Positions 2,510 to 64,000 of a stretch of DNA of 64,000 nt are shown piece after piece. How positions within the stretch are numbered: position 1 is the first letter of the stretch; each line of letters starts with the position of its first letter. Position numbers and translations under genes: made by a program. The notes beneath the pieces are model-generated. The model ran no database searches and had not been told where the DNA came from. It worked only from the letters and a program-made list of their open reading frames with translations. This DNA is from Amoebophrya sp. A120 (lineage: Eukaryota > Protista > Dinoflagellata), in NCBI GenBank assembly GCA_905178155.1, contig CAJINV010000013.1, positions 1,044,344-1,108,343 on the forward strand. The letters run 5' to 3'.

Positions 2510-5500
2510 CTATTCTCCTCTCTGTCTTTTAGCTAGAGCTTGCTGCGCCTCCTCATACCACACCACTGGATTACTTTCTTTTTCCTCTTCTCTAGTCGGC
2601 TTGTCCCGTGTCGCCCTGTGAGGCCAGTTGTGGTCTGCTGGTATCTGCTCATCTGGCATCTGGACCGCTTGGAGGAGTCTGTTCAGCTGGTTCTTCGGCT
2701 TCTTTTTGATGCAGTCGATGGCATCGCGGCCCTTGTGCGTAGCAGCTTCTGGTACTGCTGGGCATTCTACGAGGAGATGATCGACGATCCTCGTAAAGCA
2801 CCTCACGTCAACTCCATCTTCCTCTTTCCCTTCTCGGATCCACGCACCACCGTTTACTCGCCTCACTTTCACATCCCCACTGCAGAGCCGGCAAACTGGT
2901 CTCCCTGCTTCGTCCCTCCTGACTGCAGTGACAGGGAGAAAAGATTCTCCTGACCAGAGGGACAAAGCTGCACGCTCCTGTTGGGGGGTAAGGCCGGCAA
3001 GAGGGACGCGGCCGAGCTTCTTGATTCTTTTCGCCCGGTGCAGGGTCGTAACATCTCGATCTGCCCCTTCATCATCATGCTGCTGCTTTCTTCGCCTTGA
3101 TTCTCGCACCAACATCTTCACTCGGTTTTTCGTGAGACTGGTTTCTTCTGGTGCTTCTGGATCCTCGTCGTATTCCGCTAGGCAGTCCGCTATGACGTTG
3201 AGGCGGAATCCTCTATGCGAGGGCACCCAGCAAATGACTATTTCTGCTGCGGGGAAAGCGTCGAGGATCTTGTTGATGAGGGTGCGGAGGCTGTGCATCG
3301 TCTCGAGCCTGCTGCAGTCGTTCGCCAAGGCCTGTAGCACTCCGTTTGCGTCGGTGAAGATTTTGATCGTGCGGAGACCAGGGTGGATGTGCTCTGGTAG
3401 GATCCTCAGCAGCTGGTCCAGGGCGATCGCTTCGACGTCAAACTGTGGGAAATCTGACCAAACTTTGTAGGTCGTCCCGAAAGAATCATCTGCAGTTTCC
3501 ACATAGCAGTTTGCCCGCTTGGCCTGTGACCCGTCCACATCATGCTGCTGGGCCGGAGCTTGGCCCCCGTCCGCACTGGCCCGCAGTTCATCTTCAGGCA
3601 CCGGCAAGGCACAGTATGACTGCGACATTTTAGTTGCTAGCTCTTCCTCCTCGCCATGGGTGACGCCGAACTCTTTGTACATGTCCGCAGCAGTTTTGAT
3701 CGTTATCCTCCTCTCGTCACTCCATTCCGGTTGTTTGTGCAAATCTCCTCTGGAGACGTTCTTTCCCATTGCTGAACCGGCAAGGAAATATTCCATCGTG
3801 TCCCGCTCATCCTGCAACACAGAGATGGGATCGTCCATGCCGACCAGGGCGAAGGATGCCTGGACTGGGAAAGTGGGCGAGAGCCCCATTACTGCCCGCA
3901 CTGACCGCGCAACCACCGATCGCAGCTCGTCTTTCTCGGCCTTGTTGTTCTCAATGCCTTCGAATAAGGCTGCTGCTCCGTAGTTCAGCAACGATCTGCA
4001 CTGCTCGTTGAAAAATTTCAGGTCATCTGCAGGCGTCCGCTCAGACGGTGGGACAGCTGGCCTGCTTTTGGTCTTTGCGAGAATCTTCAATCTCCTCTTC
4101 GCTGATTCTCGCGCGGCGCTCCCACAGCTTTGGAGGATGAAGCCGAGGTAGTCGAAGCAGGTGCTGTCCCTCGCCCTCCCGCCTGTCGCCCGCATCCACT
4201 CGGTTTTCGAGAAGACCAAGCCAGTGCGGGATTGCCAGCCGGTGACGTACTCCTCTGCTTTTTCCCGCTGGGTGTCGGCTGCTTCGTCCTCGAATTCGAA
4301 CAGCAGCAGGATGTCGTCCGCGAAGATTTCGGGCATGTGGGTAACAATCGTCCTGTCTAGAAGCTCCACCGCTTCTGACAGGTACACGACCCACAATGCC
4401 GGTGGTAGGCGTGGGCCTTGGCCCATTCCTACCACCGGCGTCCAGCGTATCAGGATGTGTCCGTCGACCAAGACAGCGTGGACGCGCTCGCGTATCCAGC
4501 AGTACAGCTGGAACGCGAGCTCCCGGGAGGCGCCCCGGGCGATGAGTCTCTTCATGAGGGATGAAAACAACACATTTTCAAAACCCCCTTCCACGTCCGC
4601 TTTTCTCGCGAACTTGACGCGGCCCGGGGACTTGCGGCGGAAGAATCGCACCACCCGGAATAGGGATGCGTCGGCACTGCGGCCCGGAAGGTATGCATTC
4701 GCCTCAAGCACTTCCTTCGCTACGGAAAAAAGCTCTTCCAAAAGCAGTCCCTCTGGGACTTTGTCGCACGCCTCCGGCAGCGCCACTGGTCGCTCGTTCT
4801 CCACCAGTCCCAGCTTCTCCAGCACCTTGGGAATGGCGGAAATCAAGTTCACCTTGACGAACTTCATGGGCCGCATTGCGTTGTAATCCTCCACCTGCTC
4901 ACCTAGCCACTTGCTCCAATAGGCTTGCGGCACCAGTTTGATGGACTCGGGCCGGGTGCCTGACATCCCTGGTGACCGTTTGGGGAAAACAGCAGCAAGG
5001 GCCCTAGCCATCGCGCCCGATTTCCACGCGACTTTTTTGCTGGGTGCTTCGTAGATGATGCGCAGGATGTCTAGGTGGCTCACTGGATCGCCGCCTTTTG
5101 GCTCCTTTCGCCGAAAGCGCCGCTCCCTTGATTTTGCTATTTCCATCGGATCCACCATGATCTTCCCGGCGGCAACGTCCATGAGAATAGCTCTCCTTCT
5201 GGACTTTTTCCCCGCTGTCTTTGTGATCCCCGCCTTGCCCAGGGCTGCTGTGACGTCCGCCTGTAGGTCCAGCCGGCTGCTGTGGTCCTCGCTTCTGTGT
5301 TCCAGCGCCTCGACAAATGCTTTCTCCTGGCCCGCGGTCAGCTGCACTGGTGCTCTCAGCCTTGGCTGTGACTCAGAAGGAAATTTCGGCGGCTTCACCT
5401 TCGTGTAAGCGGACTGCTCGATGGTGACCCAGACACCTTGGTGGTCGGAGGAGATGTAAATCGGCGGCTCCACCTCGGCCGTCAGCGTCTTGTCTTGCTT

Positions 5501-25326: not shown

Positions 25327-27229
25327 TTACACCTCGTACATGGGGAACCTGGCTTCCACCGGGTTTTTCAGTGCGTGGAAAAACATCATGACCCCGGCGC
25401 AACCCTCGAATAATGACAGCGGTCTATCCGGCACCCGGTCGAACCCATCGGCCGCCTCGTTCTGCATCACCACCCGCGCGAAGCAGTGCGCGCGTCGCAG
25501 CCAGAGCTCGTCGTTCAGTTTTCTGTACAGACTGAGGAAGAAAAATCCGTTCCCCGCGATCCCATGACACAGGGACGCGGATTTGGTCAGCAGCCCGTAC
25601 TTCCAGCAACACTCGCCACACTTGACCGCCTGCTGCAGGTACTTCTCTTTCTCATTCACAAAAATCTCGCTGCACAGGATGAAAAGCGGGATGAACCCCG
25701 GCGCGCCGTGGCAAAATTGGACCAGTTTGGTGTCCATGGAGGTGAGTTTCGACCCGTAGTTCCCGGTGGCCGCGTCGTGGCAGTTGAGCATCAAGAAGTC
25801 GATGGACTGCTTCACCTCGGCAAGCTCGCTGTTGGTCAAAAATTCCCGCGCTTGCAACAGTTGCAGGAATATCCCGGCGAAACCGTGAGCGCCGCCGGTG
25901 TACTTCTTCATGTGCCACTCGTAACACAGCGCCGGTCTGGCCGCACGGGAACCGCCGTCGTTGTAGCTGCGGCCGGATTCCAGAATTTCCTCGACCGTTA
26001 TGCGAATTTTTGTGTTGAAGTCACCGTGTAACTCGCGGGCCAGGCCCGGGGTCGCGAAACCGCCCTGTTTTGTTTGAGTGGTGTAATCAGTGGTTTTGAT
26101 GAAGATGGCAAGGAAAAGCGTTGCAGAGCGCAAGCGATCCTTCTGCCTCCTGCTAAGCAAAAACCCACAGAGCAAGAATCACCACAACAACCGGACCAAA
26201 ATTGGAAACGAAGACTGACAAGAAAAGCAAAAACAATACCTTCGTCTGAAACTGTTTTCTGACGAACAGCAGTGCGAACAGAAACCCGGCTCTTCCGTAC
26301 AGCCACTCGTCCGATTTGCATTTTGACGAATCTACCTGCAGAAACCGGTTCACGCCGCCCAACAACACTCCCTCCAGCATCACAAAGTTATCGGGGGACT
26401 CCCCGTCGTACTCCACTACCCGTTTCCCTGACACTTGTTGCGCCAAGGTCCCCGTGCTCCCGCCCGAACTCGACCCCTTTTTCAGTAGCCCCCGGAGTTT
26501 GCTCAACCCGGTGGAACCGCCCGCGCCCCCGGACGCGGATTTTGGTCGTAATTGACTCAGTACACTGGACCGCCGTTGCACTTTCTCCGGCGGGGAAGAT
26601 GAGGGTGACGCGTTTGCTCCTCCTCCTTCCCCGTCGTTCTCATTTTGGTACTGAGGCCCGGCTTCACCCGCAGTACCACCTCCGTCCTTCAATTCAAACA
26701 TCGGATCGCTGTCTCTTTGCCTATTCAGTTCCTTCACGTGCTCGTTCACAGCGGAGTCTTTGATTTTCTCCAAATGTGCCGAACTCGTCATCTGCAACGT
26801 CTGCCCCATCGACGGGCGCTTCGCGGACCCGTGGCCCCCGTGGAGGGATTGCGGGTTCTTCTTGTGGTTCGCGAAAATGTGGTGTAACACCACGATACTG
26901 TAGAACAAGCCTGTCGCCAACCCGCCCCCGACGGCAACTGCGTGCGTCTCGACGCCCCGCTTGCCGTCCTTGTCGGCCCAGGACTGGTTTTTCTCGTTGG
27001 TCAAGAAGTACTCCGCCTGCTTCACGTCCTGTAAAACCCAGAGGGAAGCGAGGCCGGCCCCCGGTCCGCCGGAGTAGATACTGCCGGACTCGTTCGCGTG
27101 GGACAAGTCCTCGGAGATTTGCAAATCGTACTTTGCAATCTGCGCGTTGAGCTCGTCGACCGTGAGGAGCAGCGTCGTTTCATCGTCCAGGGTATTGGGG
27201 AAACAACGCGTCGCGATGGTGTCGGCCAT
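25327..27229 (-). CDS. LANCL: LanC-like protein (lanthionine synthetase C-like family), about 575 aa, two exons
   Basis: Motifs SIYSG, WLYGRAG, GGAHGFAGI, QFCHGAPG, SLCHGIAGNG, SLFEGCAG. Canonical GT-AG intron 26239-26065 joins the two ORFs in frame. Confidence 0.92.
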
Positions 27230-31600: not shown

Positions 31601-34600
31601 ATCCGCATGTTTTTCAAAAGCGATCTCGACATCTGCAGGTCGGATAGGCTGTAAGAATTTTTGTGCGGTGCGGTTTGACTACGGAGGTTCGACATTTTGC
31701 TGATCTGTTCCTCGGCGGCTTTCGCCGCTGCGAGCATTTCTGGCGGTAGGTTGTCGTTTTCGTCAGGAAGTTTGTTCAAACAACTGCCTTGTCCAGCACT
31801 GCTGCCGTCAAGCGTCGGACTACTCGCGTTGTCCAAGCCCTGGAGGAGCATCGGCAGCCAGTCGGAAACGACACCGAACGGCGTGTGGTACTTGCCCGTG
31901 GGATTATTGAGTTTTGTGGTGGCCAGCAAGTCACCAGTTTTCGTCGGGGATGTCTGGCACCGCGGTGAAAGAGCAGCAGTTCCTGCGCCTTCGGACAGTT
32001 GTCCTCGTCCCGTGGATGCATTATCAACCCCTTCTCCGTGGTTCCCTTCGATCGTATCAGCCACGGCTTTCTCCACACCATCCACGATCGCGCGGGCAAT
32101 CGACCCCGCGTCGCTTCTCTTTGCATCATCGGGCTGTAAATTATCCGGCATTTTTGCCTTTTCGTTTTCCAGCTCCTCCAGCGTTTTTTCGATGCTGTTC
32201 CGCAAGTCAATGTCCAAATTTGCCATTTCCGACTGGTGCTCCTCAATGGACTTCAAAACCTCCTGTTCCCGGAGATTTTTCGTTGTTTTGAAGTCGTTGT
32301 CGTCCAGCAAATCACTCACGTTAAAGGGCGTCGGGGTCGTGCTCGGCCGGTAGCCCTGCGCACTGCCCATCCGGAGAATCGGGTCCGATTGCAACAAGCT
32401 GGTGGTCGAATGCCGGGAGTTTTGCCGGCTGTTCCGGTAGCTCGGGGCTTTGTTGCTGCCCGGAGTGCGCAACTCGGATTGTTCGCGGAGGAACGTCAGC
32501 AGGTCTTTCCCGGCAAAGTTCAGCGACATGGCGTTCTGCTTGTCCTGCTCAGACATCGGCTTATCGGCGGTGGAGGGGTTGGTGACATTTGTTCCGCCAG
32601 AAGGCGTGTTCTTCCCCCCAGAAGCATTGTTGTTTGCCTGAAGATCGTCGTCAGTCGCGGCTCCCGCTGCTGCTCCAGAAAGCAACTGCCGTCTGCTGGA
32701 CCCGCCGGTGCTCGACTTGCTGGCCTCGCCGACGTTTTGGCCGGCCTGCGCCTTCCGGGCCGCGGCGAGGTTCACAACGTGCGAGTTGGCCTCCTCCAGC
32801 ATTTGCACGACGGACTCCATGAACGGAGACAGCGGCCGCTTTTCCTTCGCGCTGTTATTGAAAAACCCTACTGCGGCGGACACCCGCGCCCAGTCGTCGT
32901 CGTAATTCTGCAGCGTGTATCAAATGCAAAAATGTCTGGGTCTGGAAACTTGTGATGCTGGGTGGCGTCTCATGATGAGGCCACAAGTGCTGGCTCAGCA
33001 TGACAAGTTTCTGAGCTTCTAGGAAGGTGTAGGTGTTGCCTATTCTGCATGACACACTGCGTTTCTGCATCACAGAAAAACGCAGCTCTTGGGTAACGTG
33101 CATGACAGATTTAAGAGTCATGCCAGACAAGCATGACAAACATGCATTCTTCCAGACCCAGACACTTTTGCATTTGATAGCGTGTTCGTGGTCCCGTCTT
33201 TCGTGATCTGCGGCGCGGCGGGAAAGATGCTTTCTTGCGAATGATCCCCAATCAGACTGTTTGCACTGTTTTGATGCCCTGCATTCGCCGCGGAAGTAGA
33301 AGTTCCCATGAAGCTGTCCAGGCTCATAGTGCCATGCTTATTGTTCGTCTTCTCGTCGAAAGAGTTACTTTCGTCTTTGTCTTTGTCATGCTGCCCACCC
33401 GCACCCGCCACCTCCTTGACCACCTTCCGGGAGACCGCGCCCTGCCCGGTTTCCAGGGCGTTTTGGCGTCGCCGCCAGGTGACGGACGTCTGCGAGCCCC
33501 AGGCGGGGAAGAAGGCGGAAGATGATCCTCCAGCTCCTCCCGAGGGGGTGTGCAGATCGGACGCGGAGTTCCCGCTTGCACCTCCACCCATTTGGATGGA
33601 GCTGGGCCGGCTGCCGTTGATATCGTGGAAGTCGCGCAAATTTTGCTCCGCCTGCAGCGAGACCTGTGCAAACATGTCATCGGGGTCGATCTGGATACTC
33701 TTCTGCTTCAGCGTTGTCTTCTCCGCGGTAGATTTTCCAGTCACTATTCCTGGCTCGCCAGCCGTGGACTTTCGGCTCTTGTTCGACGCGTTTGCAGCTT
33801 CGGTTTTGCTCGCCCCAGTCGCGGCAGATTTCTTCGTCAGGGAATAAGTCGTCTTCGTGCTCTTCACGTGTAGGCTGGACGCTAGGCCGAGCGAAAGTTT
33901 TCGGTCGCGAATAGATTTCGTGTCCTTGACCGGGGAATCGGGTTCTCCTTTGGAGTTCTTGTCAACAGCAACTGAGCCGTCTTCTTGCTCCGGCGCGTTT
34001 CCCTCAACTGCTGTCTCAGCGCTGGTACCTGAAGAAGCCGCCCCCGGGGTGGCCTCCTTCTCTTTCTCCCCCCCAACTTCCTTTTCCAGCAAGGTCGATG
34101 CAGTGACGGACGGTGGCTCCGTACTGTCTGCAGCAGCAGCGCCATCAGCCCCCGCAGCTGCCCCGCCTGGCGGTAATTTCGTCCACCCTTTCGGCGGTTC
34201 GTCTTGCGGCAGAAGTTGCAAATCTAGTTGTTGGTCATTTCCGCCCGTCAAGGTCGTACAGGACTCGGTTCCGGACGCGGTCTGGTCCTCCTCTTGCGTT
34301 TCCTCATTCGCGAGAGTACTGGAAGAATCTTCGTTGGCAGCATCGGCTTCTGCTTGCTTGTTTTCAACACCGATTTTTTCCTCGTCCGATCCCGTAGCAT
34401 CACGCCCCGCATCCTTCTTCTCTTGATCCTCAGCCACGGGACCGAGTATCCCCGCAGGAGCAACATCGGTCATCTCTTGGGAGATGACCACAGCCTGACT
34501 CATGACCTCTGTCTGTGCAACGATTTGTGCTGCAGCCTCTCCAACCGGAAGCGCGGTATCTTCTCGTGGACGCTGCGAAGCTAGAACATCACCAGCACTT

Positions 34601-42763: not shown

Positions 42764-45700
42764 TCATTGCTTTTGCCCACCACGGCGACCCTCTTCCCTG
42801 CTCTTCTCATCCTCCTCCTTCTGAATTTGCTCCGGCGTTTTGCCTCGTCGCCTATAACAGTGCACAACTCCCCCTCCCCCTCATTTGTGTAGCATGAACG
42901 GCAATACAAGCATCAGCAAGAGTGCCGGTTTTGCATGACAAATTTGCACTGAATTATACATAGTGCTATTCGGGCTACCAGAACTTGTCATGCAAACAGT
43001 GCCACGATGCAAAGGGTGGATTGGGTATTTTGCATGACAAATGAGGGGGAGGGGGAGTTGTGCGCTGTCATATCGCCGTTGCTTCGTGTTGAAGTACTGC
43101 ACCGCCCGGACGAAGTCGTCCGCGTGGTAATCGGGAAAGTACTATGCATTGCAAATATGTCTGGGTCTGGAAGGTTGCAACTTGTGATGCAAATTTCACA
43201 CAACACAAAGATCTGTGATGCATGAACAGCAAATGCGGCCCAAAACTTGGCCCAAAAACAGCGAATCTGTCATGTGGATCAGGCATGGGGATACCTTCTC
43301 AAGACGTGTGATGCTATGGCTTGCATGCCAGACCTCCTAGATCATGCAAGAGCAGCATGGCAAATATCTGGACCCATCCAGACCCAGACATATTTGCATT
43401 TGATAAGTACTTGGACTCGAACAGAATCTCGGCGTAGCGCAACTGTGGTAGACAAAACTCGGACAGCCGCTGCTGGTCGCCGGTTCTGTTGTAATCAAGT
43501 GCGTGCGATAATTAAGCTCGCATTCTTATTTCTCGAGCGCATTAGTTAGCACCAAAACTGTCTTTCGACCAGTGCACAGCAGGTGGCGCAAAGCAGTTCT
43601 ACCTGTGCCTGCTTGTGCTTCTTCGATTATGTTTATGACCTCACTACAAACTACATCATGATAAAAACCAACCTCTCCAAAAAAAAATACCTGACGAGGA
43701 GATCAATCTCTGAGTCGATGCCCATGAAGGACATCAACTTTTCGAAGTCCCAATCCAAAAATTCTGCATTTTTCTTTATCAGGTGGTCCTGGTGCATGCG
43801 CTTCATCGCCTCCTGGAGTTCCCAGCTCGAACTGTACGAGAGCAAAATGTTCAGCCGCATTTTCTTGTGCTTCCGCGTGCTGGTGTGGATCTCCTGAATC
43901 AGAGCCCGAAATTTCTGCCGCTCCTCGGTGGAAAGCTGGTAGACGAGATCGGGTTTTTTGTTATCAACATCGTGGTTAACCTGCTTCTTCGTCTCGTTTG
44001 AAGATCTTCCATCCGCTGCTGGTGCTCCCGCTGCGCTCTGCTCGCTTTTTTGTCGCTGGAATTCCGCGTTTTGCATCACTTGCTCCGTTGTCAACTGCCG
44101 CTGCTGATCCGCTTGCGCAAGCGAGTCAATCGACTGGCCGGAGGAGGACTTGGACCTGACTCCGGATAATTCTGTGTTGAGTTGTAGTCCCGCAGCAGTT
44201 GCAGTGGACGGCGCACCTGCATCTTTATTCCCACTCGACGTCCCAGTGACTTGCCTTTCCGGCGTGGGGCTCCCTCCTGCTTCCGCCTGCTGCTCTATCA
44301 AAAGGAAAAATCCCCCCTCCCCATATCAAAACGAGATTTCTGATGCTGGATTTGGGTACACAAATCAAATTTGTGTTGCAGTAGAGGAATGCACAGCACA
44401 GATCCTGAGCCTGGGCGGGGGCCATTTGGTGTAGGCGCCTAGCATGGTAAACGGCTATCCTGTAGGCCTTACAGCGTTACAAATCGCCTGCATAGCGTGC
44501 CGGACAACCTGAGCGCGCCTTCTTGCAAGACAGACCCCATTTGTGGTCACAAATCACCAGCACAAATTTTCGGAAACATACCTTTTCGATATGGGAAGGG
44601 GGGATTTTTCCTTTTGATATGCTCGCCCCGAATGTCTTCCTTGATGGAACTGGCGTTCGACGCCCTGCCGGGGGAATGATACCGGAAAAACCCACCGTGC
44701 ACGGGTGTCGGGGTGCTCACGGCACTGAAGTTGGGGAGCTGCTGTTGATCATGCCCTTGTGGTCTACAACTGCTCCCTTGGCCGCCTATAATCAACGACG
44801 AGTTGTCTCCACCGCCTGCAGGTCCCGTGGCAAGGGGCCCTCCCAATGCAGCGGTGCTCATTGCAGACAGTTGCAACGGCTGCGGCCGCAGGAGAGGGAA
44901 GGCGGCTTTCTGCTGCAGCAACCTGGTCATAGAAGACGTTGGCGAAGCAGAGGATAGTGGTGCTGGTGCCCCACCACAAACTCCTCCTGCTGCAGAAGAG
45001 ACCACAGGCTGCATGGTCGTGGCTGATCCAGTTGTACTAGAGGCTCCTCCTGTCGCGGTACAACTACTTTGCAGCTGCCCTCGTAGTTGCTGTCCACCGG
45101 CCGCGCCCAGGAGGTTCATCTGATTCATCTTCGCGCACAGCGCCTCGTGCTGTTGCGCTTGAAATTCTTCTTTCGCTTGCGAGTTCCATACCACGTTGCA
45201 CCAGGAGGGGGATATCGACCCCGCCTGAATTTGCTGGAACGAACTACTCACCCCGGAGAAGAGCGAGCCGCCGGATTCCGAGGGTTGCTTCAGCGTGACC
45301 GACGAAATGGTCGAGGCCAGTGTATCCGGCGAATCGCTCCGCTGGGGCAGGACGCCTGTGGGCGGCACCGGGAGAAAGCTCTGGGCCGCCTGGTCCGCCG
45401 CAATCGGACCGGCGGTAGGTGGAGTGAAGGGTTTATGCAAGTAGAGAAAAACTGTGTTAGTCTGATGAAGAAATAACAGATGCGCGGCCCTTTACGTTTA
45501 TTTCACACTTGTCACGCCGGATGGTGATCTTGGTACCGTCAGAGCGGCTTTCCATGGTTTTAACAAGGGACTCCGCGTACTTCTAGTGGCGCACGTTATC
45601 ATGCTGCTCATCGAAAAATGTACTTATTTTTACACCAAACACAGACTAAACTAAAACTTTTTTTTTGAATAGGGAGGTGCGCTGCTCTGCTGCTCCAAAG

Positions 45701-47903
45701 CATTTCCTTGGACCACTACACCTGTATTAGTACTACGCTGCCCGTCTTCCCGCTGATGGTCACCACCTTGTCCCTCGACCATAACTCCGTCCTGCTCCTC
45801 CTCCTCGTCTTCTCGTGGCGAGTTCCTGCGAGAGCTCAAGTTGCTGCCATCACTTACCGGGGTGGGTAGGTGCTCGGAGGAACTGGTATCCAACACGTGC
45901 GGCTGTCCTTCCTCGGCATTATTTCCGGGCGGTTTGCCGAAGCCCTTTCCCTGTGAAGATCCACGGCGCGCGGACGACTTCGAGGTTGTGTCCGACACAA
46001 CCTCGAAGTCGTCGAAAGGGGGCGAAAGATCGCCGATCACGCGAAGCTGAATTTCGTTGTCTTTCAGCTGTTTTCGGAGCTCCGGATCGGTCAAAAAGTT
46101 CGTGAACCTAGCCATTAAGTGCTGCACTTCGTCCTTAGGCCGCTTCCAATTGTCCGAACCTTGAGGACGTAGAAAAAAAGTCAAGTCATGTTATCAAGGA
46201 GCTTTTCCACAGATGCATGGAACAAATAAGAACAAATTAGAAAACCAGCACGCCTCGTATCTTAAATTTTTGTGGTTCAAAAACCTTAAGCTCCGAACAG
46301 GTCACTTATGAAAAATGAGAAAGTAATTGAAAAAATTGTATACTGAAAGCGTATAGCGTCAGTTGCGGAATGCCAATTTTCGCCGCCGTTTCGATCAACT
46401 CGCGGACATTTTTCTCCGCCTCACTGTGCCCCGCAGATCGGTGGAACCCCCTTGAAGACGCCCAGCGCCCGTTCCCGTCCATCACTACACCCACGTGGTT
46501 GGGGAGCTCAAGTGGACCGCGTTTTGCCAGAGGTTTCTTCTCCGTATCCAGCTCGTGGGTGACTGTCGGGTAAAACGCGAGCAGCTGGTCTAGCGTAAGC
46601 GGCTTGGTAAAAACCGTCCCACCCGTCGAGGAGGCTTGTTCCGCAGTTTTCATATTCACTTTGGTCAGGAAACTTGACGCTGGACTGTTGCTTTCTGCAG
46701 CCTGTCCGCTCGACGTCGTGGCTCGGTCAACATTCAATGAGTGATTGTTCCACCAGAAATTTTTGCACTTGAAAAAAAAATCCTCCGGCGTAGTTGCCGC
46801 TTCAGTAGCGGAGGCTGACGTCGTCATCTTCGTGCTGGTGCCCATCAGGCTAGTACCACTCAAAAGAGGATGCGCTGCCCGCGCCCAAATCGAGGTTGGA
46901 AGCAGAGAGGAGTAGTAGATTGGCGCACCACCTCCAGCAGGTTCTTTATTTTGTGAAGATCCGGCTACAACTACTTCCCGCTGCATTTCCGCCTCATACT
47001 GCTGCTTCCGCAGGGTCAACGCCTCCTCGAAAGTGGGGATCTGGAACGACGGGGGAGCGAAGTTGACATTGACGGCGGGGGTAGAGACCAAATGCATGCC
47101 GCGCTCAAAATTAGTGAGCGACCAGAAGGGCGCTGCATTCAAATTCATTGGCGTCGTGCTGCTGCTGGCCGCTTCTTCGCATGAGAGAACCGCAGGTCCG
47201 TTGAGTTTATCGACTCTTGTTCCTGCTCTACCAGTAGATGACGGCGTTGCTGAATTTTTGCAACTACTAGCCAATGACCCGGACTGCTGGCCACTAGGGA
47301 GGACGGAAGAGGAACTAGTACTGCTCTCTCGACGAGCGACATCGTCCTCCACTTGGGTCACCTCCTGCTCCAGGGGGAACGACACCGTCTTCGCATATCG
47401 TGAGGAAAAATCCCCCCTCTCCACATCAAAAAGGGATACTTCTGAAAATTTGCGATGCTGATTTGTGGCCACAAATCGTCTCTGTATTGCAAGAAGGCCA
47501 AGCCAGAGACTCCGCCGCATTTTGCAGGCGGTTTCTGATGCTATGGGGCCTACAGAGTACACATTTGCCATGCTACGCGCCTACGTCAAAACCCTTCTAC
47601 TTAGGCTTGGTATGGGCCTGCAGTCCTCTACTGCAAGACAGACCCGATTTGTGTACCCAAATCCAGCATCAGAGACTTCCTTTTGATATGGGGAGGGGGG
47701 ATTTTTCCTTGTGATATCGCAACCGCCGTTTTCTGGTGCTCAAAGAGCTTGGCTCGGCCAATCGTCGACGCAATCGTGGAGGCAATAGCGGTGCTGCTCA
47801 CCAAGAGGAGGTGACAAAGTGGCTGCACCCATTTTTTCGGTACAGGGAGAGGAGATCTCGAGAGACGAGTTCTGGTAGAAGACACGGGGCCGCAATTCGT
47901 CAT
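42764..47903 (-). CDS. cis-prenyltransferase (UPPS/DHDDS family), about 1,119 aa, eight exons
   Basis: Motifs PNHVGVVMDGNGRWA, GH, YAFSSDNWKRP, RVIGD, LNILLSYS, DLLVRTGDQQRLSEF, YAEILF, FPDY and QRRRG are assembled from exons 47903-47717, 47390-46344, 46159-45672, 45428-44620, 44290-43691, 43485-43406, 43137-43073 and 42847-42764 (3,360 nt). Confidence 0.9.
42853..43072. mobile_element. TIR intron element, family C
   Basis: TATAACAGTGCACAACTCCCCCTCCCCCTCATTTGT with an inverted copy. Perfect TCGCC TSD. Removal restores the C-terminal RRRG motif. Confidence 0.95.
43143..43405. mobile_element. TIR intron element, family A
   Basis: TATGCATTGCAAATATGTCTGGGTCTGGA with an inverted copy. Perfect AGTAC TSD. 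Removal gives ESKYFPDY. Confidence 0.95.
44296..44619. mobile_element. TIR intron element, family B
   Basis: TATCAAAAGGAAAAATCCCCCCT with an inverted copy. Perfect TGCTC TSD. Removal gives IRGEQQAEAG. Confidence 0.95.
45434..45671. mobile_element. Probable aged TIR intron element
   Basis: TATGCAA...TTGAATA ends, flanks GGGTT/GGGAG. Removing 243 nt gives SAPP|FTPP. An alternative GT-AG intron (about 45721-45452) also keeps frame. Confidence 0.55.
45973..46013. repeat. Perfect 41-bp palindrome inside coding sequence
   Basis: GACGACTTCGAGGTTGTGTC-C-GACACAACCTCGAAGTCGTC. Confidence 0.95.
47396..47716. mobile_element. TIR intron element, family B (opposite orientation to 44296-44619)
   Basis: TATCGTGAGGAAAAATCCCCC...GGGGGATTTTTCCTTGTGATA. 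Perfect TCGCA TSD. Removal gives TAVAKTVSFP. Confidence 0.93.
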
Positions 47904-52167: not shown

Positions 52168-55100
52168 TCAGATGATAACGTAGATGCAGAGCACCTCCAG
52201 AACGAAGCACAAACGAGGCAGGAACAGGCTCCGTGTCACAGGCACAAGTGGGCCATCCGCACCACGACCAAGGGGGCCGTCCGCACCCCCTCCTGCGTCG
52301 TTCAAATTTCGCCGCCCACGATAGTTGTGCCACGCGGGCCGCCGTAGGAGCCGCCCGTACCCTAGCACCACAACAAAAGCAATGCACAAAAGCCAACCCA
52401 GAAGCACCGCCAGCGCGCGAAGGTATTGAGGGAAAATCAGTGATCTTGGGAAATGCTGCTACCCCTAAGAAAAATCGCAGCCTGTCATGCGGACCTGCTA
52501 TTTCCCTGTGTGTCGTCTCCTTTTCATACATGCGGGCGCAAAAAAGCACACCAGAAATCTCCTTTCCATTGCAAAAAGCGAACCAAATAAACTCACTCCT
52601 TTCCATGCGGTCTAGAGTGACTTTTCGTGGGCGTTTTGGTTTTCTTCGCATCTTCGCAAAGAGCCATTTATAGGCGAACCCGCGTCAGGCGCTGCCTTTA
52701 TTTTTCTTAAGACTAGCAGCAGTCGGGAAGGTCACTCATTTACCCTCCATAGAAGGGCTACCATGCGGTCGATATCTTCGCCGAGACGGTAACCTAGGCC
52801 CCGTTTCTGGCAATTATCCAATGGCAGCCCAGTTTTCGTGTGATAGAGCTGATGAGTTTTCCAGTTATAGAGCGGACCTCCTTCTGGGTAAACCGACACC
52901 TCGGCGTTCACGTCGTGCAGCGTTGTGTATCCCACAAGAAAAAGCTAGCAGCTTAATGCGAAAGCAAATACATAGAAAGTTCCGTCCTGAATAGCCTAAA
53001 CGCCACCCATGCTCTGGGCCTGGTGCCCATCATGAGAGGTCTTTTTGCCATTGCCTATTTACTTTTCTTGCATATAGATTCACAAATATGTTCCCTTGCT
53101 AGCTTTTTTCTGTGTGATATCACATTACTACCTTTCCCGAAGAGCCGCCATGCGTAGAAAACTGGGACGTTTTCCCCGAGGAAAATTTGCACCGTCTCGA
53201 ACAAAAGCATGAAAAACATCGAAACGGGGGCGCACATGTAATGGGCCCATCGCAAGTATTTCCGCGAGGGCCGCACGTGCCTTGCGAGGACCTCCTCAAA
53301 CAGCTCCACGTTCGATCCCGTCCTCGCTTCTCGCGCTTCTTCTTCGTCGTCGTCTTCGTTCGGCTCCTCCTGGTGCTCCTCGCGCAGCTGCAACTTTTTT
53401 TTCTCCTGGTCACTCGGAGACGAGTCCTCTGCCTTCACCTTCTGGACGTTTTCGCTTCTTGCGGAGGTCATAATTTTCTCGTGGTGTGTAATATCGTCGA
53501 TGGAGGGCAGGGCTGCAGTTAAAACGAAGCCGGTCGCGGGAAGGAGGAGCAGCAGAGCCCGGAGGCAAATATTCAGTGCAAATATGTCTGGGTCTGGAAA
53601 GGTGCAACTTGTGATGCTGCCTTTGGATTCTACATAAAATCTGTATTGCGTGAACAGTAGAAGAGGTCCAGTTGTTGCTACGCAAAGAGAGCAAATATCA
53701 TGCGGTAGGAGCATCAGAAAGCCCCCACAGAATCTGTGATGCTAGGGCATGCATCACAGACATAAGAAGTCAGGCAAAATGTGCATGACAAACCTTGCAC
53801 CGTTCCAGACCCAGAAACTTTTGCATTTGATAGCAAATCTCGGTGTACGACTGGGTCGCCGCAAATGTCAAACCCAAATTCTCCGAAAGACTCGGCTTCA
53901 TGAAGCACCAGGGCGAGTGCAGCGTAAAGGTGTGCCGACTCAGGATGATGCACACGCCAAAGAGGATCAAGCCCGTGGTGAACATAATGCCCTCCGGCGA
54001 GGTCTGCGACTGGCAGACGGCGCTCAGGGTCATGTTCTTGCAAAAATCCCCGGGTATCACGTAAAACTGCTCGTCATGGAAGCCACGGATCAAGTGCTCC
54101 CGCCCACTGGCAACGAGCTCCTCTCTGTGCCGGCGGGTCGGAAAGCGCCGCGGGCACAGGACCAAATGTACGGGCAGCAGCGTCGCACCCACGGCGGAGA
54201 TGTATGCGATCGTGACTATCAAATGTAAAAATGTCTGGGTCTGGAAAAGTGGAACTTGTAATGCTAGCTTTACATTCCTGGAAAATCTGTATTGCAGAAC
54301 CAACAAAAGTCGCAGCCACTTTTGTCATGCAAAAAGGCAGTTTCTCATGCGGATTGCGTATGAGAAAGCGTTCTGGAAAGTTGTCATGCTGGGCTGCGTT
54401 CGGAAGTAGTTCCGTCATCCACATTTTAGCATCACAGGTCTCCAGACCCAGACATATTTGCATTTGATAGTGACGAGTATGCTGCTAAACATGAAGTCGG
54501 ATCGCACCGTGCCAACCAAGAAGGCAAACATTTTCTGCAAAATGATGTCGGTGACCGCCCCCGCCTCGCGGACGCGTCCCAGTGCTTCCGTGGTGTTTTG
54601 GGCCAATTCGGCGGACCGTGCGGACAAAGCTGCATAAAAGTCCTGACCTTCTACTCCCTCATCTTCGTCCAAGTTGTAGCGAGTCTTGATCCCTTCGCTC
54701 GTCCTCTTCGCATCAGCTCCTGGTGGCGCGGTGGTGCCCACCATTTTGTTTCTGGATCCGGCCTTCTCGGTCGTACTAGTCCCGCTCACCCGCAGCTCCG
54801 TCGTCGCGGGTTCTCGTTCTGCTGGTGAGTTTTCATCATTTCGACCTGGTGCGCCGTTCTGGTTGGATTTCTCTACGTAGCTTTCGCCCAACGAGCTCGT
54901 TCGCGACAAAGAAGTAGATCTCCTCGTTGTGCGCTCTGGCGGCTCCTGCTGTCGCTCCTGCAGCTGGAGAACTAGCCACTTCAGCTCGTCCACCTCCCGC
55001 GCCATGCCCTCCATCTTCACCTGCATCGCTTTAGTGCCGTCAGTTGTCATCTCGGCATCTTCAGCTACTTCAGGAGATTCAACTTGTAGTTGCGCTTGCG

Positions 55101-55659: not shown

Positions 55660-57486
55660 CGCATCGTTGGCAATATCGACTTCTGTTTAATTGGGTTTTT
55701 GTTTTTCGTTTTTTCTTTTTCTCATCTATCACAAATTTCTTCCTACATCCCTTCGCGCATAACAAACTACACAGTGCTCCTTGGGGTATCGATATGCCAA
55801 CTATGCGATACAAAGTACTTACCCTGTCGAGACGCCGCTTTCTTGTCCCCCTTCAGCCGCTTGTCGGTAAAGAACGGCATCCACAACGAGAACCAGAACA
55901 TCTCATCGGACGAAGCTTTATCAATGATCCCACATGTGCATATTATAACCTGCTCAGGTGATGTGACGATCTCAACGTTGACGATGCAACGCTAAAAGTC
56001 GTCCTCTGGAACCTTTGTTCAAAAGGTAGTTTTCTGTGAGGACAAGAGGTGAGATGATATACAAACGAAACTGCTCGTCATGGTTGAATATGCTCTCATG
56101 GACGGGCATAGCTGTTCCTGCGCCTGCCATACGCCGATCAGAGACACCAAAGAGAACACGAACAGGGGAAAATCGTAAGTACACGCGTCTCTCGCTCATC
56201 GCGGTACTCTACTCAATCAGTCCATTCCTGAGGATCTCGTCGTTGCGACAGATGTTATCTTGTACTCGTTGCCATTGATTGATAAAGTTAGTACCTCGCC
56301 GTCATCAACATCTCACTCGATGTAAGTACTTCACGGCTCGCCTATGGGAGATACGCGCGCTTCTACATTTTGATTCTCTATGCCTGTAGTTTCTGCATTT
56401 CCGTTTTGACTCTCGTACGTGTGGCTGTCGACCACATGGGTAATCCAGATTCGTGGATTTCGATACTGTGCCGCGTTATTTTATGCAGTTACCGCAGACG
56501 GGCCACCCAATGGATGGCCGCTCGGTGGGAGCAGTCCCCCACCGCGTCGTCGAGGCGCCCAGGGAGATGGAGCACCTGACCCGCGATGGAAGACATGGAC
56601 CTCTGTCACACCCCGTAAGAAAAGGGCGGCGCGAGGTCTTAGCGGCCCATCCGTGGTAACGTAACCACCTAGAAGCAAATGGGAGGGGGGGCGGGCGAAA
56701 CAAATACCACCCCGAAAGTCGGTGGGCTGTCCTGACTAATCTTCTCAAGTCCTGGCTACCGTAAACTAAGGGCTGAGGGCGGACACGGGCATAAAATACC
56801 GCCCGACCATCCTCAGCCTAGGCTCACAGGCTCGCTAGCCTGTTGCTACCCGGGCATACATTTTATGCAGTTACCGCAGACGGGCCACCCAATGGATGGC
56901 CGCTCGGTGGGAGCAGTCCCCCACCGCGTCGTCGAGGCGCCCAGGGAGATGGAGCACCTGACCCACCGGCGGAGGCCGGATACGCCGAAGCATCCCAAAG
57001 AACCCGCTGTGGCGCTTGCGGCCAGTAGATGAATTTGGGAAACCGGTGCGCCCCATCGATGAAGGCGTAGCAACGAACGACGACGGGCTGAAAAGTGGGC
57101 CGATAGACTAAGACGCGGGCCTATCAGAAGGGTCCGCCAAATAGAACGAAAAACCGCGATCGCCCAGGCTTAGCATAGCCCCATTACAAACCAATCGGAC
57201 GAGTCTCGGTCTCGCATAGCGATGGGAGGGGAAGTCCGGATATTTATCTCAAAGCAGATCCAACGAAGTCCAGCGCTCTAGTCAGGGAGAAAGTTCGCAA
57301 GGGTAACGGGTTCGAACCGCCAGTGCCAAACGACCCCTCCTCCCATCGCAAAGCGAGACCGACCGCCGTTCCTCGTCCCGAGGACAGAACGGCCAGACAA
57401 CACCTATCCCGCATAGATAGCTGGCAACGAGACGTTTCCGACCTTCGGAGTCCAAAATTCCCGCACAGCGGACCAAGCTAGACCTT

Positions 57487-57673
57487 CGGACAAGCGAAAG
57501 CCAGAACTTGCGAAAGGCGGAAGCCAAATTTCCCGACAAGCGGAAGCCAAAGTTCGAGGCTCCGAAAAAGCGGAAGCCAAAATTTCCGACAAGCGGAAGC
57601 CAAATTTTCCGACAAGCGGAAAGCCAAAATTTCCGACAAGCGGAAGCCAAAATTTCCGACAAGCGGAAGCCAA
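57487..57673. repeat. Minisatellite, about 8 copies of a ~23-bp unit
   Basis: CGACAAGCGGAAGCCAAAATTTC repeated in tandem. Confidence 0.9.
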
Positions 57674-57826
57674 ATCATCCGCAAAGCGGGCCAAACAATC
57701 ATCCGCAAAGCGGGACTAACGATCATCCGCAAAGCGGGCCAATCATCCGCAAAGCGGGCCAATCATCCGCAAAGCGGGACTAACGATCATCCGCAAAGCG
57801 GGACTAACGATCATCCGCAAAGCGGG
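57674..57826. repeat. Minisatellite, 7 copies of a 20/24-bp unit
   Basis: ATCATCCGCAAAGCGGG core with 3- or 7-nt linkers. Confidence 0.9.
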
Positions 57827-58114
57827 ACAAACGAGACTTACTACCAACGGCAGGGGCGTTACTCCCTGGGAACAAGAGAAGGCGAACAAATACCACCCCG
57901 AAATTCGGTGGGTTGTCCTGACTAATCTTCTCAAGTCCTGGCTACCGTACACTAAAGGGCTGAGGGCGGACACGGGCATAAAATACCGCCCGACCATCCT
58001 CAGCCTAGGCTCACAGGCTCGCTAGCCTGTTGCTACCCGGGCATACATTTTCGTGGTCTTTTATTTTTTGTTCTCAAGAAGTAAACACCTGACTAGATGA
58101 AGTAAGACTTTGTT

Positions 58115-61100
58115 TTATTGAATCATGTAGCAGATCCTGGGAAACTGCGGGATGACACTTCTTTCCAAGTAGAAGGGGTGCTGGCTTAGAAACGTCTGCA
58201 CCGCGCACCGCTCCTCCACTGTTAGCAGCGAAAGCCTCGTCGTCCGCCAAAGGTTTTCAAAGTGCACAATTGACCGGGCCACCGGGTGCCATTCCAAGCG
58301 GAGCGACAGAGGAAGGGCGGAGTCGTAGAACCGAGATTTCAGCAGGATGGAGGTTTGCTGGTCGTGGTGCGGGTCCTTGTGATGTTCTACTTCTTCTACT
58401 TCCGCCAATCGCCCTCGTCCTCGACTTTTTCTAGTTTTTTCCCCTCTACTACTTCGCTGAAGAGCCGGCCCACTGCTCCTTCCTTGGTACCCGAACTGAA
58501 ATTCCAATTCGTTTTCGTTCCTACCGTTCGGATCAACAAGTACATTCTTTTCGCTTTCGAAATTATTAAACGGACCACTGCGGGGCACGTAGGCGAACAA
58601 CACGCTCCACAAATGTTCGAAGATCATGCAGATGGCCTTGTTGTAAATTTTCGGCGTCGATGTGATGTCAACCCGGACGGAGACAAAATCGGTGACGCGC
58701 GGCCCCCGCAGCGCATCCGGCTGAAACATCGTTTTCGAAAGGCCTCTGTGCACCTTGTTGTGCCACGCGGCGCGGTAGAAGTTATTTGATGCAGTTCTGC
58801 TTCGGTCGCGGCGCCGTTCTTGTTGTGGTGCCTGTTGTTCAAATCCCGCACTTATCAAATGCAAAAGTGTCTGGGTCTGGAAGATTCTGAGATTTGTCAT
58901 GCATATTTTGCATGACCCAGGATGTCTGTAATGCACGACCTAGCATCACAGATTTTTAGAGGGCTTCCCAGCCAACTCCGCATGACAAATGCCCTCCCCG
59001 CGTAGCAGAAACGAACCCTCTCTTGCTGGTCATGCAATACAGATTTTTTTAGAGTCCAAAGTTAGCATCACAAGTTCCAACGTTCCAGACCCAGACACTT
59101 TTACATTTGATAGCACTACCGCTGAAAAACGCCTGCCACGTGTGCTCGACCGACTGCAGGCCAAACGCCACCTGCGTGTACCAGGAACGCGCCTTTGACA
59201 AAACAGCCGCTTTCGACAGGAGAAAGACCCCGTAGTCGTATCCGCCGAAGTGGTGTTGCGGCAGGGTGAACTTCTCTTGAAACAGCACGTTCCAAATTCT
59301 GCGGTGGAGCTGCAGCTCGTACGCATCCGGCAGGCGGTGGTACGTGGCTTCCTCGTAGTTGATTTTCCCGCGCTTGATCGGGTTCTTCGTCTTTGCGGCA
59401 TCGAAGTACTTCGATTTCACAAACGTGCGGAATTTCTCGAAGTAGGAGCGAGATTTCATCAAATGTTCTGGCTCATCTTCGTGAACTACTACAGGATCGC
59501 CGCTCGGTGCTGGCAAAAGTCTCTCTTCGACAAACTTCTGTATTCTGGCTTGCTTCATAACGGATTTCAGTCGCGCTTTGGCTTTGTCATCTACTGCACG
59601 ACGGAGTAGGGCGGGAGGCAATGGCACTTCTGTATTCTCTATCTCTGCACCGGAAAAACCAGCAGGGTCCGCCGCACCAGGTCCATCATTTTCATAATTT
59701 GGACTGATGGCGCCGTCGGGAGAAATAGGAGTTCTTGCGCTAGAAGATGTAGCGTCAACATTCTCGATCTCTTCGTACCACCCGTCGTCCATTTCGAAAT
59801 CCTTTTTGTTCAAGAAGTCGCCCATTTCCCCGCTCTCCAACCCGACTTGGTGGTACACAAACGTTTCGGGGGAAACGAAGCCGCCGAAACTTGCTGGTTG
59901 AGATACAACTGTGCCTGCGGTGCTGTGGCCGTTCTGGCCGTCAACTATTATTTCCTCGCCCGCTGAGGACAATCTTCCTTCATTCGTTTCTGTGCTGTCA
60001 CGACGATCAGCAACGTCCTCGCGGTCCTCTCTTGGCGGCCACATTAAAAGAGACTCGCGGCCCGCCCCCTCGTCCACGCTTCCACGAGATGAAACCACGC
60101 CAAATGCTTTCGACTCGTCCGACGCAAGGAATTTCTCCCGCAGTAATGAAAGGGGTGGAGGAGAGGACGTTAATGTTGCACCAGCATCGTGGTCTTCTTG
60201 TATGCTAGTTGTACTTCTTGTAGCGGCCTTAATGTTGCTCATTATCTTCCTGGTTGGGAACACTGGTTCGTGCAAGAGCGGTCCGTGCTGCCGTTTTCCC
60301 AAGTGCACCACGTCTGCCTTGATCTCCCGCTTCCACTCCTGCCCCCGCTCCAACGCTTCAAACAAAGCCTGCATGATGCCCGGCGTCGCGTGCTCCCGCC
60401 AATCGGGGTGGGCCATGAAAGTCACATCCGGCAGCTCGTCGTAATACTTCGCCAAGTGCCAGAACCGCACTCCCACGTCCAAAGTTCGCACGTCTTCCTC
60501 GTGCGAGTCGTCGAAAAACACGGAATCCGCACGAAACTTCGCGCAACGGTCGAGCAGGTTCGCCGCGAGCGGGTTTTGAAGGAATCTCTCCACTTCCTGC
60601 GCTCTCTTACTCTTAGTCTCTTCTGTTTCATCTCCTAATGAAGTTTTGCTGTCCAGTAGCTCCTTCGCGGAAAAAACCCGGTAAGTTTTGTCCGTTGCTT
60701 TTTGGTGAAACGCAAAGGAATTCGTGTCGGACGCGGTGGTGGGCATCTTCGACGTAGTTTCTTCGTTGATAGAAGTCCTTGATGCACTCCTACTTGGCAG
60801 GAACCGCCCGAACTCGCCGCACAGATCGTAGAAGAAAATTCGGCTCCAGCCGGGAAACACGGAAATGTCCAAATCTTCCACATCGGATTCGGCACAAACG
60901 GGCAACACAATGTCGATGGAAATGCGGTTTTTCCGCACGCTTTCAGGCAGCTGCGTCCGCCCGTTCCAGTACTGTTTTTGCACTTCCGACACGTTTTCGT
61001 CGCTCCAGGCGCCAATGTTCATCACGGAGATGCTGTCGGACCGCTCCGACAGCTGCGCCCCGCGGTAGTAGTGGTGCTCGCGGGGCTTCTTGTTCTCCTT

Positions 61101-64000
61101 TTCTGCATCCGAAAGCAGGGAGGCAAGCAGCTCGCCGACGGAAATCGCGGGCTGGTGTTCTACTTTTAGTTCTTGTCCTGAGCCTGACGCTGTGTGATCA
61201 GCAGTCTTGCCTTGTTCGGAATCTTCTTCATCCAGGCGGTCCTCACTGGATGAAGCGGAATGATGTTTATCTTTCTCCTGCTCGCGTCGAAAAGCGTCAC
61301 AAACGCAGTCTTCGTAAACCAATCGAGACCCGACTCCAAACTCCTCGCACGTTCTCCTCATGTAGGCATGGAGGAAGGACGCACTGGTGTTCGCAGAACC
61401 AGAAGCCCCCGACGACGTGTGGTCGAGAGCAGCAGTTCCGTGGTCGGGTATCTCAAACTCCAGAATGTGTAGCTCGAGGACCTGTTTCAGTTGTTTCAGC
61501 AGCGAGAGCTCTTCTTCTTCGACGTCCACTACTACTCGTGTTTTATTCCCTCTTGCGCCTTCAACACCCTTGCTGTTACGTCGACCATTGATGTTCGCGC
61601 CAGCGGTGCTGGTCCTAGTGCTTATTTCTTCTATCACGCTCTGCAGCCAGCCCCTGAGCTGCCAGGCGTACAGCTGCGCCCGGCAAAGACTCACCACCCG
61701 CAGCATCTTCAAGCGGATGATTTGCACCGCGACGGCCAACGGACGGGACAAGACCAGTAAAATGGGGAAGCCCATACGCTCCAGCCAGATCCAGTAGATC
61801 AAAAATTTCGACGGTAACTCGTTGCTCTTCGATTGGCGCGCGCGCTCCACGAGCCTCAAATACCGCTCGTGGCGATGCTCGTTTGTTTTTGGCGGTAAAA
61901 CCGCAGGCGGGTCAGTGTAACCTTCTTGTCCTTCCGGTTCAGGTAGATGATCCTCGTTGCGTTCATTCAGTATTGCGGCCAGCACATCTTCCTCCGGACC
62001 ATGATCCACCTCGACATCCACATCGTGTGGATGTGGACCAGTAGTACTCTTCCCGGTTCTCGAGTCGTCGCTTGAAACATCAATATGAGCGTCACGCTTT
62101 TTATTTCCATCGAGGAAAAATCGCACAACAATTCTGACGAAGTCAAACGCTGTGAAGTCAGCGTTTCTGGATACCACCCACTGTCGTATCTGCTCCTTCA
62201 CCGTGCGCGGCATGAAACGCATTCTTTCCGCCGCCAGAAAGTCCCCAGGGACGGACTCCTCCTTCGTCTGTATCACCTGCTGTTTCAGCTGCTCTTGCTG
62301 CAGGGTTCGGGTGATCTCTTTGTCGATATTTGCACGTTCTTCCTCTTCGTCAACATGACGTTCTTCAACAAGCCCCTTGTGCGGTTGCGCTCCCTCGTTC
62401 CGCTGGGCCTGGTGCTGCCCGTCTTCATCTCCTTCCTGCTCGTCGTATATTACTGCAGAACTGGCGCTCTCCACCGGCAGCGCAACAGCAGCACCAGAAG
62501 GAAAAACCCTATGCCTCAGCTCCTCTCTTGCCCGAAAATGCCGAATCACCTCCCAATTCCACACCTCGTCACGCTCCAGCAGCCAACTGCATTGAAATGG
62601 GTTATACGGTGCTGCAGGAGGAGGTGGAGGACCAGCTGTTGACCCGACTACTTTTTGTTCATCCGGCCGATGTCGCGGTGCCGCACTGGAAGCATCTGTT
62701 TTTGACTTTTCACCGCTTTCAGCACCCTTGTCAGAATTTCCTCCCGCGTCCGCGCGGTCTGCTACGAGGTCTTCGGGAATACCTCTCGGAGCTCCTGCTG
62801 CTGCAAAAGGTTTTCTCATACGCTTGCACTCCGCATACCCCGCGCCGTCGTCCGCCTCAAAGCTGTGCTGACAGTGGTACACGGTGCGCTCCGCCATCTG
62901 GCGTTCAATCCACGGCACGTAATCCGGCGTCAAAGGCGGTCCTTTATTCCGATACACTGGGTTCTCCGAATGCAGCTCATTTTCTTCGTCTTCTTGCTGC
63001 CCAGTTGCTTCACGTCTTCTATCTGCGCTACTTCTTGTCTCACTAACCAACAACCGCATGTCCTCCGTACTGTGGTAGAAAGGAGTGCGTTTCAGAGGGC
63101 CTTGCAACGAATCGAAGTCTTCCAGCAAACACGTTTGTTCCTGTAGCTGGTTCACCTCGAGAGACACCACCAGGTTCCAGAGAAAGGAAAGCGCAGGATT
63201 AGCCGTTCTAGAAGTATTCTGCGTAGAGACTGTTGCAAAAGATGGCCTGAGGCGAAGATCGGATGATCTGGAGTTCTCAAGTCGCGAACTGTAGATGATC
63301 TCGCTTTGTCCTTCCGCTTGCTCCTCACGAGTAGTCTGCTCGGTTCGTTCCTGATCCTCGTCGTTTCTATCGTTTATTCCATCTAGCTGCCTAACAGTGT
63401 CTTTACTGCCAGCAACCGCGTCGTGTCTGTTTTGCTCGTTCTCCTCCTCGCGTCTTCGCAATAGATACGTCTCACCATCTTCTCGGGCCTCCGGCCCGTC
63501 ATAATCGAGCACGGACTTCCCGTCGAACCACCACTGAAAATCATGATACGGTGAGCTGACTGTTTCATCGGCGTGGTCCGAGGGGTTGTTCTCAGGATCA
63601 TTTGCCGAGATGAATCCCCGGTCCCGCAGCCAGGGCATCAGGCTCGAGAGCCGCACTGCTCGCTTCCCGTAGTCCAACAAACTTTTGAGATGAAACAAGC
63701 CGCCCAGCTGCTTCCGGAAGACGACCCGGGCGTGATCGCCGTGGGGCAGCGAGATCGGAACGTGCTTCCTTTGCTCGTACTCCGGCGGCCACAGGGAGGA
63801 CGCATCATCGTCCCACGTGCTGCTGGGCTCGACCTCGAAAAACAGCCGGCCAAGCACGGGATGGGAACGGGAGGACAGAGTACTATTTTCATCATCATCA
63901 TCAGTTTTTGCGGCCGTGGTACTGGTCGTGTAGGAGTCGATACTGTCGGTGCTCGTGCTGCGTGGCCGTTCTAGTGTTTCTTCTTCAGGAGGTTCTGGTT
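58115..64000 (-). CDS. Large protein (5'-truncated by the window) with a dispersed DUF3431-like domain
   Basis: Frame is open from 64000 to 59113 and joins 58847-58115 after TIR removal. HLAKYYDELPDVTFMAH, FLLSKAAVLSKARSWY and IFEHLWSVLF match remembered DUF3431 motifs. Confidence 0.8.
58853..59112. mobile_element. TIR intron element, family A (opposite orientation to 53570 and 54217)
   Basis: Family A TIRs. Perfect GCACT TSD. Removal gives FSGSAGFEQQ. Confidence 0.95.

Follow-up and report, generated by a model that had tools for sequence, protein, structure and literature searches.

A Ngaro/VIPER-like split-repeat element of Amoebophrya sp. A120 that is absent from a spliced contig of its host gene

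The window analysed here is a 64,000-nt stretch of the Amoebophrya sp. A120 genome, whose own positions are used throughout; all seven of its frames longer than 600 codons lie on the minus strand. One gene of this strand (58115–63998, stop codon 58115–58117) is open over 1,872 codons when 58848–59112 is left out and over 1,649 codons when that segment is kept, and two of its frames were scanned with no match to Pfam. The segment holds a hairpin introner (58853–59112) with a perfect 5-bp direct repeat, which served as our control for splicing. Beyond the stop codon lies the likely 3′ untranslated region of the gene (56228–58114, minus strand), in which 63 nt lead from the stop to a short core motif, followed by the repeat element described below and by 250 nt to the end of the matching contig.

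Introners are frequent in the window. We found 14 inverted-repeat pairs with TAT…ATA ends, eight of them with a perfect 5-bp direct repeat and a geometry in which the removed segment exceeds the TAT-to-ATA length by 5 nt. These pairs, like the shared strand of the longest frames, accord with the published Amoebophrya genomes (PMC7789003). Besides the introner of the host gene, seven more elements of this published kind, all with TAT…ATA ends and perfect 5-bp repeats, lie at 32918–33179, 42853–43072, 43143–43405, 44296–44619, 47396–47716, 52424–52751 and 54217–54469; a related copy near 53570–53832 fell outside the filter. The family of the host-gene introner is very large, matching 7,910 contigs in DNA run X1, and several DNA contigs carry two of its copies only 25–39 nt apart, that is, separated by very short exons or spacers. 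Elsewhere in the window, a long imperfect palindrome of 11-nt units occupies 17577–17712. A LanC-like frame (25330–26178) and a cis-prenyltransferase (46309–47580) gave the sole Pfam matches among 20 long frames of the window; since both matches cover only part of the profile, the genes are likely split. The LanC-like protein had its best hits, at 45%, among unnamed and crustacean proteins.

The element (56478–58050, minus strand) has one ATTT core at each end, at 56478–56481 and 58047–58050, and its terminal triplets on the plus strand are TAT (56482–56484) and ATA (58043–58045). Read on the minus strand, its order is A1–internal part–B1–A2–spacer–B2. A1, the predicted 5′ repeat (57881–58051), has its copy in A2 (56694–56864), aligned in 172 columns at 97.1% identity (E = 1e-75). 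No difference falls in the outer 97 nt and all five lie in the inner 75 columns, a distribution with a chance of about 0.016 for a boundary chosen after seeing the data. B2, the predicted 3′ repeat (56478–56582), and B1 (56860–56964) are identical over 105 nt (E = 2e-48). A2, a spacer of 111 nt (56583–56693) and B2 together form a SIRE-like unit. A2 and B1 overlap in the ATTTT of 56860–56864, and around this overlap (56854–56870) the right end of the element is joined to its left end, with short palindromic arms flanking the core. By analogy with models for the DIRS order, the junction is a predicted recombination site. Repeat comparison thus confirmed the coordinates, the repeat order and the end-to-end junction given in the preliminary description of this locus, and both the order and the identities bear out the split-direct-repeat anatomy for which it had cited Ngaro-type elements.

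The internal part (56965–57880, 916 nt) differs in length between relatives and matches no Pfam family. It contains two minisatellite arrays, one of a 23-nt unit repeated 8.6 times (57485–57689) and one of a 24-nt unit repeated seven times (57674–57834), as well as a stem-loop with 31-nt arms (57206–57362) that is common to relatives. The stem-loop has a z-score of −3.5, computed on a stretch picked for its inverted repeat, and is likely a candidate cis-acting signal. Coding remnants were sought in 12 of the element's frames (25 reach at least 50 amino acids), none of which matched Pfam at E up to 1, in agreement with the earlier view that the element has no coding frame. A tRNA scan of the element found none, and a single Rfam match (E = 2) was rejected, its 18 bits falling far short of the cut-off of 55. 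A second arm with an inverted core lies inside A1 (57974–57984) and in A2 (56787–56797), and its complementarity to the left end extends over 14 nt. In a 1,611-nt contig of run X5 (likely RNA, depth 135.6), unrelated A/T-rich sequence is joined to the A repeat exactly at 57978, and two DNA contigs break at 56790, within the second-arm region of A2. Perhaps this arm is a further recombination or splice point.

We compared the window with contigs of several sequencing runs, of which X1 is DNA and X5, X6 and X7 are likely RNA from one sample that is distinct from the DNA sample and study. The latter three were judged spliced because they skip the introner of the host gene, RNA being the recorded type of none of the runs found to carry this sequence. 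The preliminary description had expected further copies with consistent ends, and the family bears this out, as regards the ends on the right side. In run X1 the flanks have a depth of 42–43 and contigs inside the element of 219–327, about five to eight times as much, contig depth being a rough guide. Relative to the flanks, the depth is 7.7-fold where B continues into the spacer and 7.0-fold where it continues into the internal part, which is near 1:1, and the 111-nt spacer recurs in other copies (the run X1 contig at depth 327 and a run X3 contig). Relatives in which internal pieces are missing or replaced account for seven further joints, five in run X1 and two in run X5. A single-copy DNA contig of 2,984 nt (run X1) has about 2.8 kb in place of the 216 nt at 57069–57284 and is either a longer family member or one with a nested insert. 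Summed contig depth in run X1 peaks at 57285–57362 (about 2,600–4,800), implying that this arm of the stem-loop recurs more widely, in additional copies or families, than the other parts of the element do.

At other loci the right end still reads C and ATTT before the sequences diverge, as seen in four contigs of run X1, one of run X5 and three of run X6. The shared core, first described as ATTTT, is accordingly common to both ends but one letter shorter: because right ends elsewhere match through 58050 only, the core is ATTT, and the fifth T, at 58051, belongs to the flank of this locus. Since the letters behind ATA are identical at other loci, with no variable target duplication, they argue for a recombinase and against a MITE; for this reason we discarded the idea of a MITE flanked by a 5-bp duplication.

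For the B1/A2 junction in other copies, no go-back joint was present among the 15 of 48 joints listed, and the sole sign of the junction elsewhere is a family contig that ends about 21 nt past it. In the metagenome and viral collections scanned with end and junction motifs, we found no coding parent, and the junction motif had no match in viral contigs; no reverse transcriptase, recombinase or circle turned up in the material compared. Three marine metagenomes share 0.07 of the words and carry no weight as evidence. One metagenome match to the 21-nt right-end motif was rejected as chance, the bacterial contig sharing only those 21 nt; the contig in question (L001, 1–5890), in which a bacterial permease region folds back on itself almost perfectly, is likely a sequencing artefact.

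One contig (run X5, 2,532 nt, depth 19.5) lacks the element. It joins 56477 to 58047, omitting the 1,569 nt of 56478–58046, with five letters that fit either side of the joint, and the joined sequence is exactly the empty site predicted beforehand. Across 1,339 aligned bases the contig has no other letter that differs from the window; it ends at 56228, past which DNA run X1 continues. The same contig joins 58847 to 59113, omitting the introner plus 5 nt, and because it also lacks this neighbouring introner we take it to be spliced and likely RNA. Runs X6 and X7 likewise skip 58848–59112, while contigs of DNA run X1 enter both the element and the introner at both ends, with no such joint among the joints listed. 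Our first reading of the 56477–58047 joint, as an empty DNA allele, was dropped because of the introner missing from the same contig. The predicted empty site was right in sequence, down to the letter in one contig, but most likely not in kind. The element is likely missing because splicing of the host transcript removes it as a non-canonical intron. The 1,569-nt skip has six equivalent registers with the same product, none of them GT–AG. The preliminary description overlooked that a host gene's likely 3′ untranslated region harbours the element, and that the joined form, coming from a spliced and likely-RNA contig, most likely reports splicing rather than an empty site.

The joint itself was seen in one of the three likely-RNA runs (X5). 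In run X6 the match begins at 58047 and is preceded by 249 letters, about as many as the left flank has in X5. In run X7 it begins at 58046 and thus includes the C of the element, preceded by 227 letters; the C could be a chance letter. If the X7 contig continues at 56476, the cut was made one base over, and no empty allele could give such a product. The word share of run X7 is 0.23, where 0.19 is expected for both flanks and 0.11 for the right flank alone; as pieces of relatives add to the share, it is a weak hint. Raw reads of RNA run X12, from a different sample, gave no alignment even to the flanks and have no bearing on splicing.

The ends of the element have the arithmetic of the window's introners. 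From TAT at 56482 to ATA at 58045 there are 1,564 nt, so that the skip of 1,569 nt again equals this length plus 5. We computed that cutting one base ahead of TAT and four bases past ATA restores the pre-insertion sequence on either strand, and does so too when the two halves are cut separately; restoration is exact because C and ATTT amount to five letters. Since the junction has the form arm–C–ATTT–arm, with ATA and TAT beside the core, every insertion acquires TAT…ATA ends and the 5-nt offset. The boundary direct repeat consists of ATTT at both ends, and the flanking 5-mers match at four of five letters. Terminal pairing is another matter: the ends of the element pair perfectly over 5 nt and at 11 of 30 positions, with a duplex energy of −28.4 kcal/mol (background −20.8 ± 5.3 kcal/mol), whereas those of the eight window introners pair at 21–29 of 30 positions with −34 to −69 kcal/mol. 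Because its ends pair over 5 nt only, removal of the element by the machinery that removes introners is not a given. The TAT…ATA end may be a lucky fit kept by selection rather than mimicry built from scratch, as TATG-type ends are known from CryptonS.

We favour, by a small balance of probability, the reading that the element is a non-autonomous recombinase retrotransposon of the Ngaro/VIPER type whose recombination site doubles as a splice signal. The preliminary assignment to the tyrosine-recombinase retrotransposons agrees with the split-repeat anatomy, the several copies and the constant right end; none of the 12 frames scanned matches a reverse transcriptase, RNase H or recombinase. A transcript would start inside A1 on the minus strand, near 57955, and be reverse-transcribed by a coding relative, and its missing outer ends would be rebuilt from the internal B1/A2 copy. 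A borrowed tyrosine recombinase could then insert a closed circle carrying the B1/A2 junction at an ATTT of the genome, and scar-free splicing would keep the cost of residence in transcribed DNA low. The confinement of the A1/A2 differences to the inner part of the repeats, together with the letters at 56843 and 56848, which both A repeats carry and in which they differ from most family contigs, is as expected if the outer part of A1 had been recopied from A2; the identity of A1 and A2 rests on the assembly, in which polishing could have evened the copies.

A bolder extension, which we hold to be doubtful, makes the attachment site itself the splice signal. TAT…ATA ends and the 5-nt offset would suffice without a hairpin, 1.6 kb would be removed scar-free in either orientation, and the cut could slip by one base, as in run X7. 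The excised intron would then be a full-length element RNA and a template for new copies, closing a cycle like that of group II introns from an element of the DIRS order and the host spliceosome.

The locus could also be built from two non-autonomous Crypton-like DNA elements lying head to tail, the second at a site recreated by the first, which would make the split repeats a local accident; either or both may be spliced. With the B repeat as X and the A repeat as Y, the units would run from TAT to ATA as X–spacer–Y (377 nt) and X–internal–Y (1,182 nt), and each half indeed has the same two ends and cores. Cryptons are described in passages of PMC3212892 and bioRxiv 10.1101/2022.05.23.493040 as having 4–6-bp terminal direct repeats, no inverted ends and non-autonomous families, with TATGG shared by the ends of CryptonS, and the same passages document target matching by a short terminal motif. 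That no junction of other copies was found among the 15 of 48 joints listed fits this arrangement as well. The near 1:1 depth of B–spacer (7.7) and B–internal (7.0) argues against it, as do the A repeats, which share the letters at 56843 and 56848 and differ only inside, unlike independent copies unless the assembly evened them. We therefore consider such a tandem unlikely. An assembly artefact, whether a tandem duplication or two merged loci, is far less probable still: no contig among the runs compared spans the whole element, and the support comes from data other than long reads, but single-copy DNA contigs join each flank to the element with no differences (56000–56505 and 58021–58879), the adjacencies B–spacer, spacer–A, B–internal and internal–A all occur in contigs, and A1 and A2 differ at five places.

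Other readings accept the split-repeat retroelement and dispute its splicing. If the insertion were recent, the joined form could come from RNA of cells that never had the element. The DNA and likely-RNA runs are indeed from different samples and studies, the joined form reproduces the predicted empty site letter for letter, and the element's ends have no long hairpin. Yet RNA contig and window show no differences over 1,339 bases, the C at 58046, which is part of the element, persists in run X7, single letters already set the copy apart from its closest relatives, and TAT…ATA plus 5 fits the introner geometry; taken together, these make an empty allele improbable. Template-switch artefacts at direct repeats are known, and the joint lies in a direct repeat, with five letters that fit either side, so the joined form might have arisen by a switch of the reverse transcriptase across the ATTT repeat during library making. 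The joint is nevertheless the only transcript form seen across the 58047 boundary in runs X5 and X6, a switch would have to skip 1,569 nt without a strong terminal hairpin, and it would not retain the C seen in X7. We give this last reading very little credence and prefer splicing of a split-repeat retroelement.

In the parts of PMC6681497, PMC8547959 and PMC9210276 drawn on here, Ngaro, PAT and VIPER are defined by split repeats together with a copy of the junction. The element resembles these and TATE in its A1…B1–A2–B2 order, in repeats of 100–200 nt and in the near-identity of each pair. Like SIRE of Trypanosoma cruzi, which corresponds to the A2–B2 part of VIPER, it has its own A2–B2 spacer, of about 30 bp in SIRE against 111 nt here; unlike SIRE and the solo repeats of Cafeteria, which comprise an A–B part only, it keeps the full four-repeat layout (same sources). 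As in the DIRS model, a short core marks the two ends as well as the junction; in that model ends are rebuilt from an internal copy and a circle integrates at a short core, although the part of the source drawn on (PMC7192593) found mostly linear single-stranded cDNA, and the circle could not be amplified. Removal from host RNA is unmentioned for Ngaro, PAT, VIPER or TATE in the passages of PMC6681497, PMC8547959 and PMC9210276 considered. Unlike Ngaro, PAT and VIPER, the element has no frame for gag, reverse transcriptase/RNase H or recombinase among the 12 scanned and is at best a non-autonomous derivative; with no coding parent, it is not assignable to any one of the three. TOC1 is a precedent for such non-autonomy.

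Introners in Amoebophrya A25 and A120 were placed among non-canonical introns by Farhat et al. 2021 (PMC7789003), who analysed them at 40–1,000 bp and whose definition rests on inverted repeats of 8–20 nt. Our element agrees with them in being gone from spliced contigs, in having no GT–AG register and in its short boundary direct repeat, which spans 3–5 nt in introners, and TAT…ATA-plus-5 geometry. It departs from those described in the parts of PMC7789003 drawn on in its 5-nt inverted match, its length of 1,569 nt, its fixed core in place of a variable duplication and its position in an untranslated tail. The main text of that paper mentions neither DIRS nor Ngaro nor a tyrosine recombinase.

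Introners derived from retrotransposons and Cryptons have been published (Gozashti et al. 2025, PMC12130899, in part); the types recorded there for Amoebophrya A120 are LTR, non-LTR and TIR. The recombinase types among them are VIPER/Ngaro-like and DIRS families of Polarella glacialis and Lasiodiplodia, as well as Crypton introners (PMC12130899). Polarella fam3, a dinoflagellate family of 1,709 copies noted as 'VIPER/Ngaro-like', is like our element a recombinase-type maker of introns; the sites of those families, in the portion of supplementary file 8 considered, are almost always GT/GC/GA…AG, unlike those here. In that portion, none of the three Amoebophrya rows matching DIRS, Ngaro, Crypton or VIPER is finally classed as DIRS, and the first 23 of the 106 termLTR rows of the supplement include none from Amoebophrya. 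Amoebophrya fam86 (1,619 bp, with satellites) was set aside, its 84-bp inverted ends being absent from our element. The element's family may be listed unrecognised among the other Amoebophrya rows; the rows considered give descriptions without sequence.

With Cryptons, as treated in the cited portions of PMC3212892 and bioRxiv 10.1101/2022.05.23.493040, the element shares a 4–6-bp direct repeat at both ends, the lack of inverted ends and a TATG-type terminus; it differs from them, since they have no long direct repeats, in its two long repeat pairs, unless these are read as a two-unit tandem. Leaving aside Roy et al. 2023, the supplement of Farhat et al., files 13–14 of Gozashti et al. and journals behind subscription, we saw in the literature searched no account of a non-autonomous element with split repeats that lacks a hairpin and is excised at non-canonical sites.

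More than 60% of Amoebophrya introns are without GT–AG signals and the mechanism of their removal is open, the published model leaning on terminal hairpins (PMC7789003, in the parts drawn on). If our element is spliced, a 1,569-nt sequence with the same end letters and offset and five paired bases would mean that removal can proceed without the hairpin. A single letter tells the flanking 5-mers of the element apart, the very one that separates a −1/+4 from a 0/+5 cut, which offers a natural test of the splicing rule and its precision. If true, our preferred reading would give recombinase retrotransposons, which make no target duplication, a way to become scar-free introns. The element is real; it works like a non-autonomous Ngaro/VIPER element and falls outside the published introners on the hairpin by which these are recognized.
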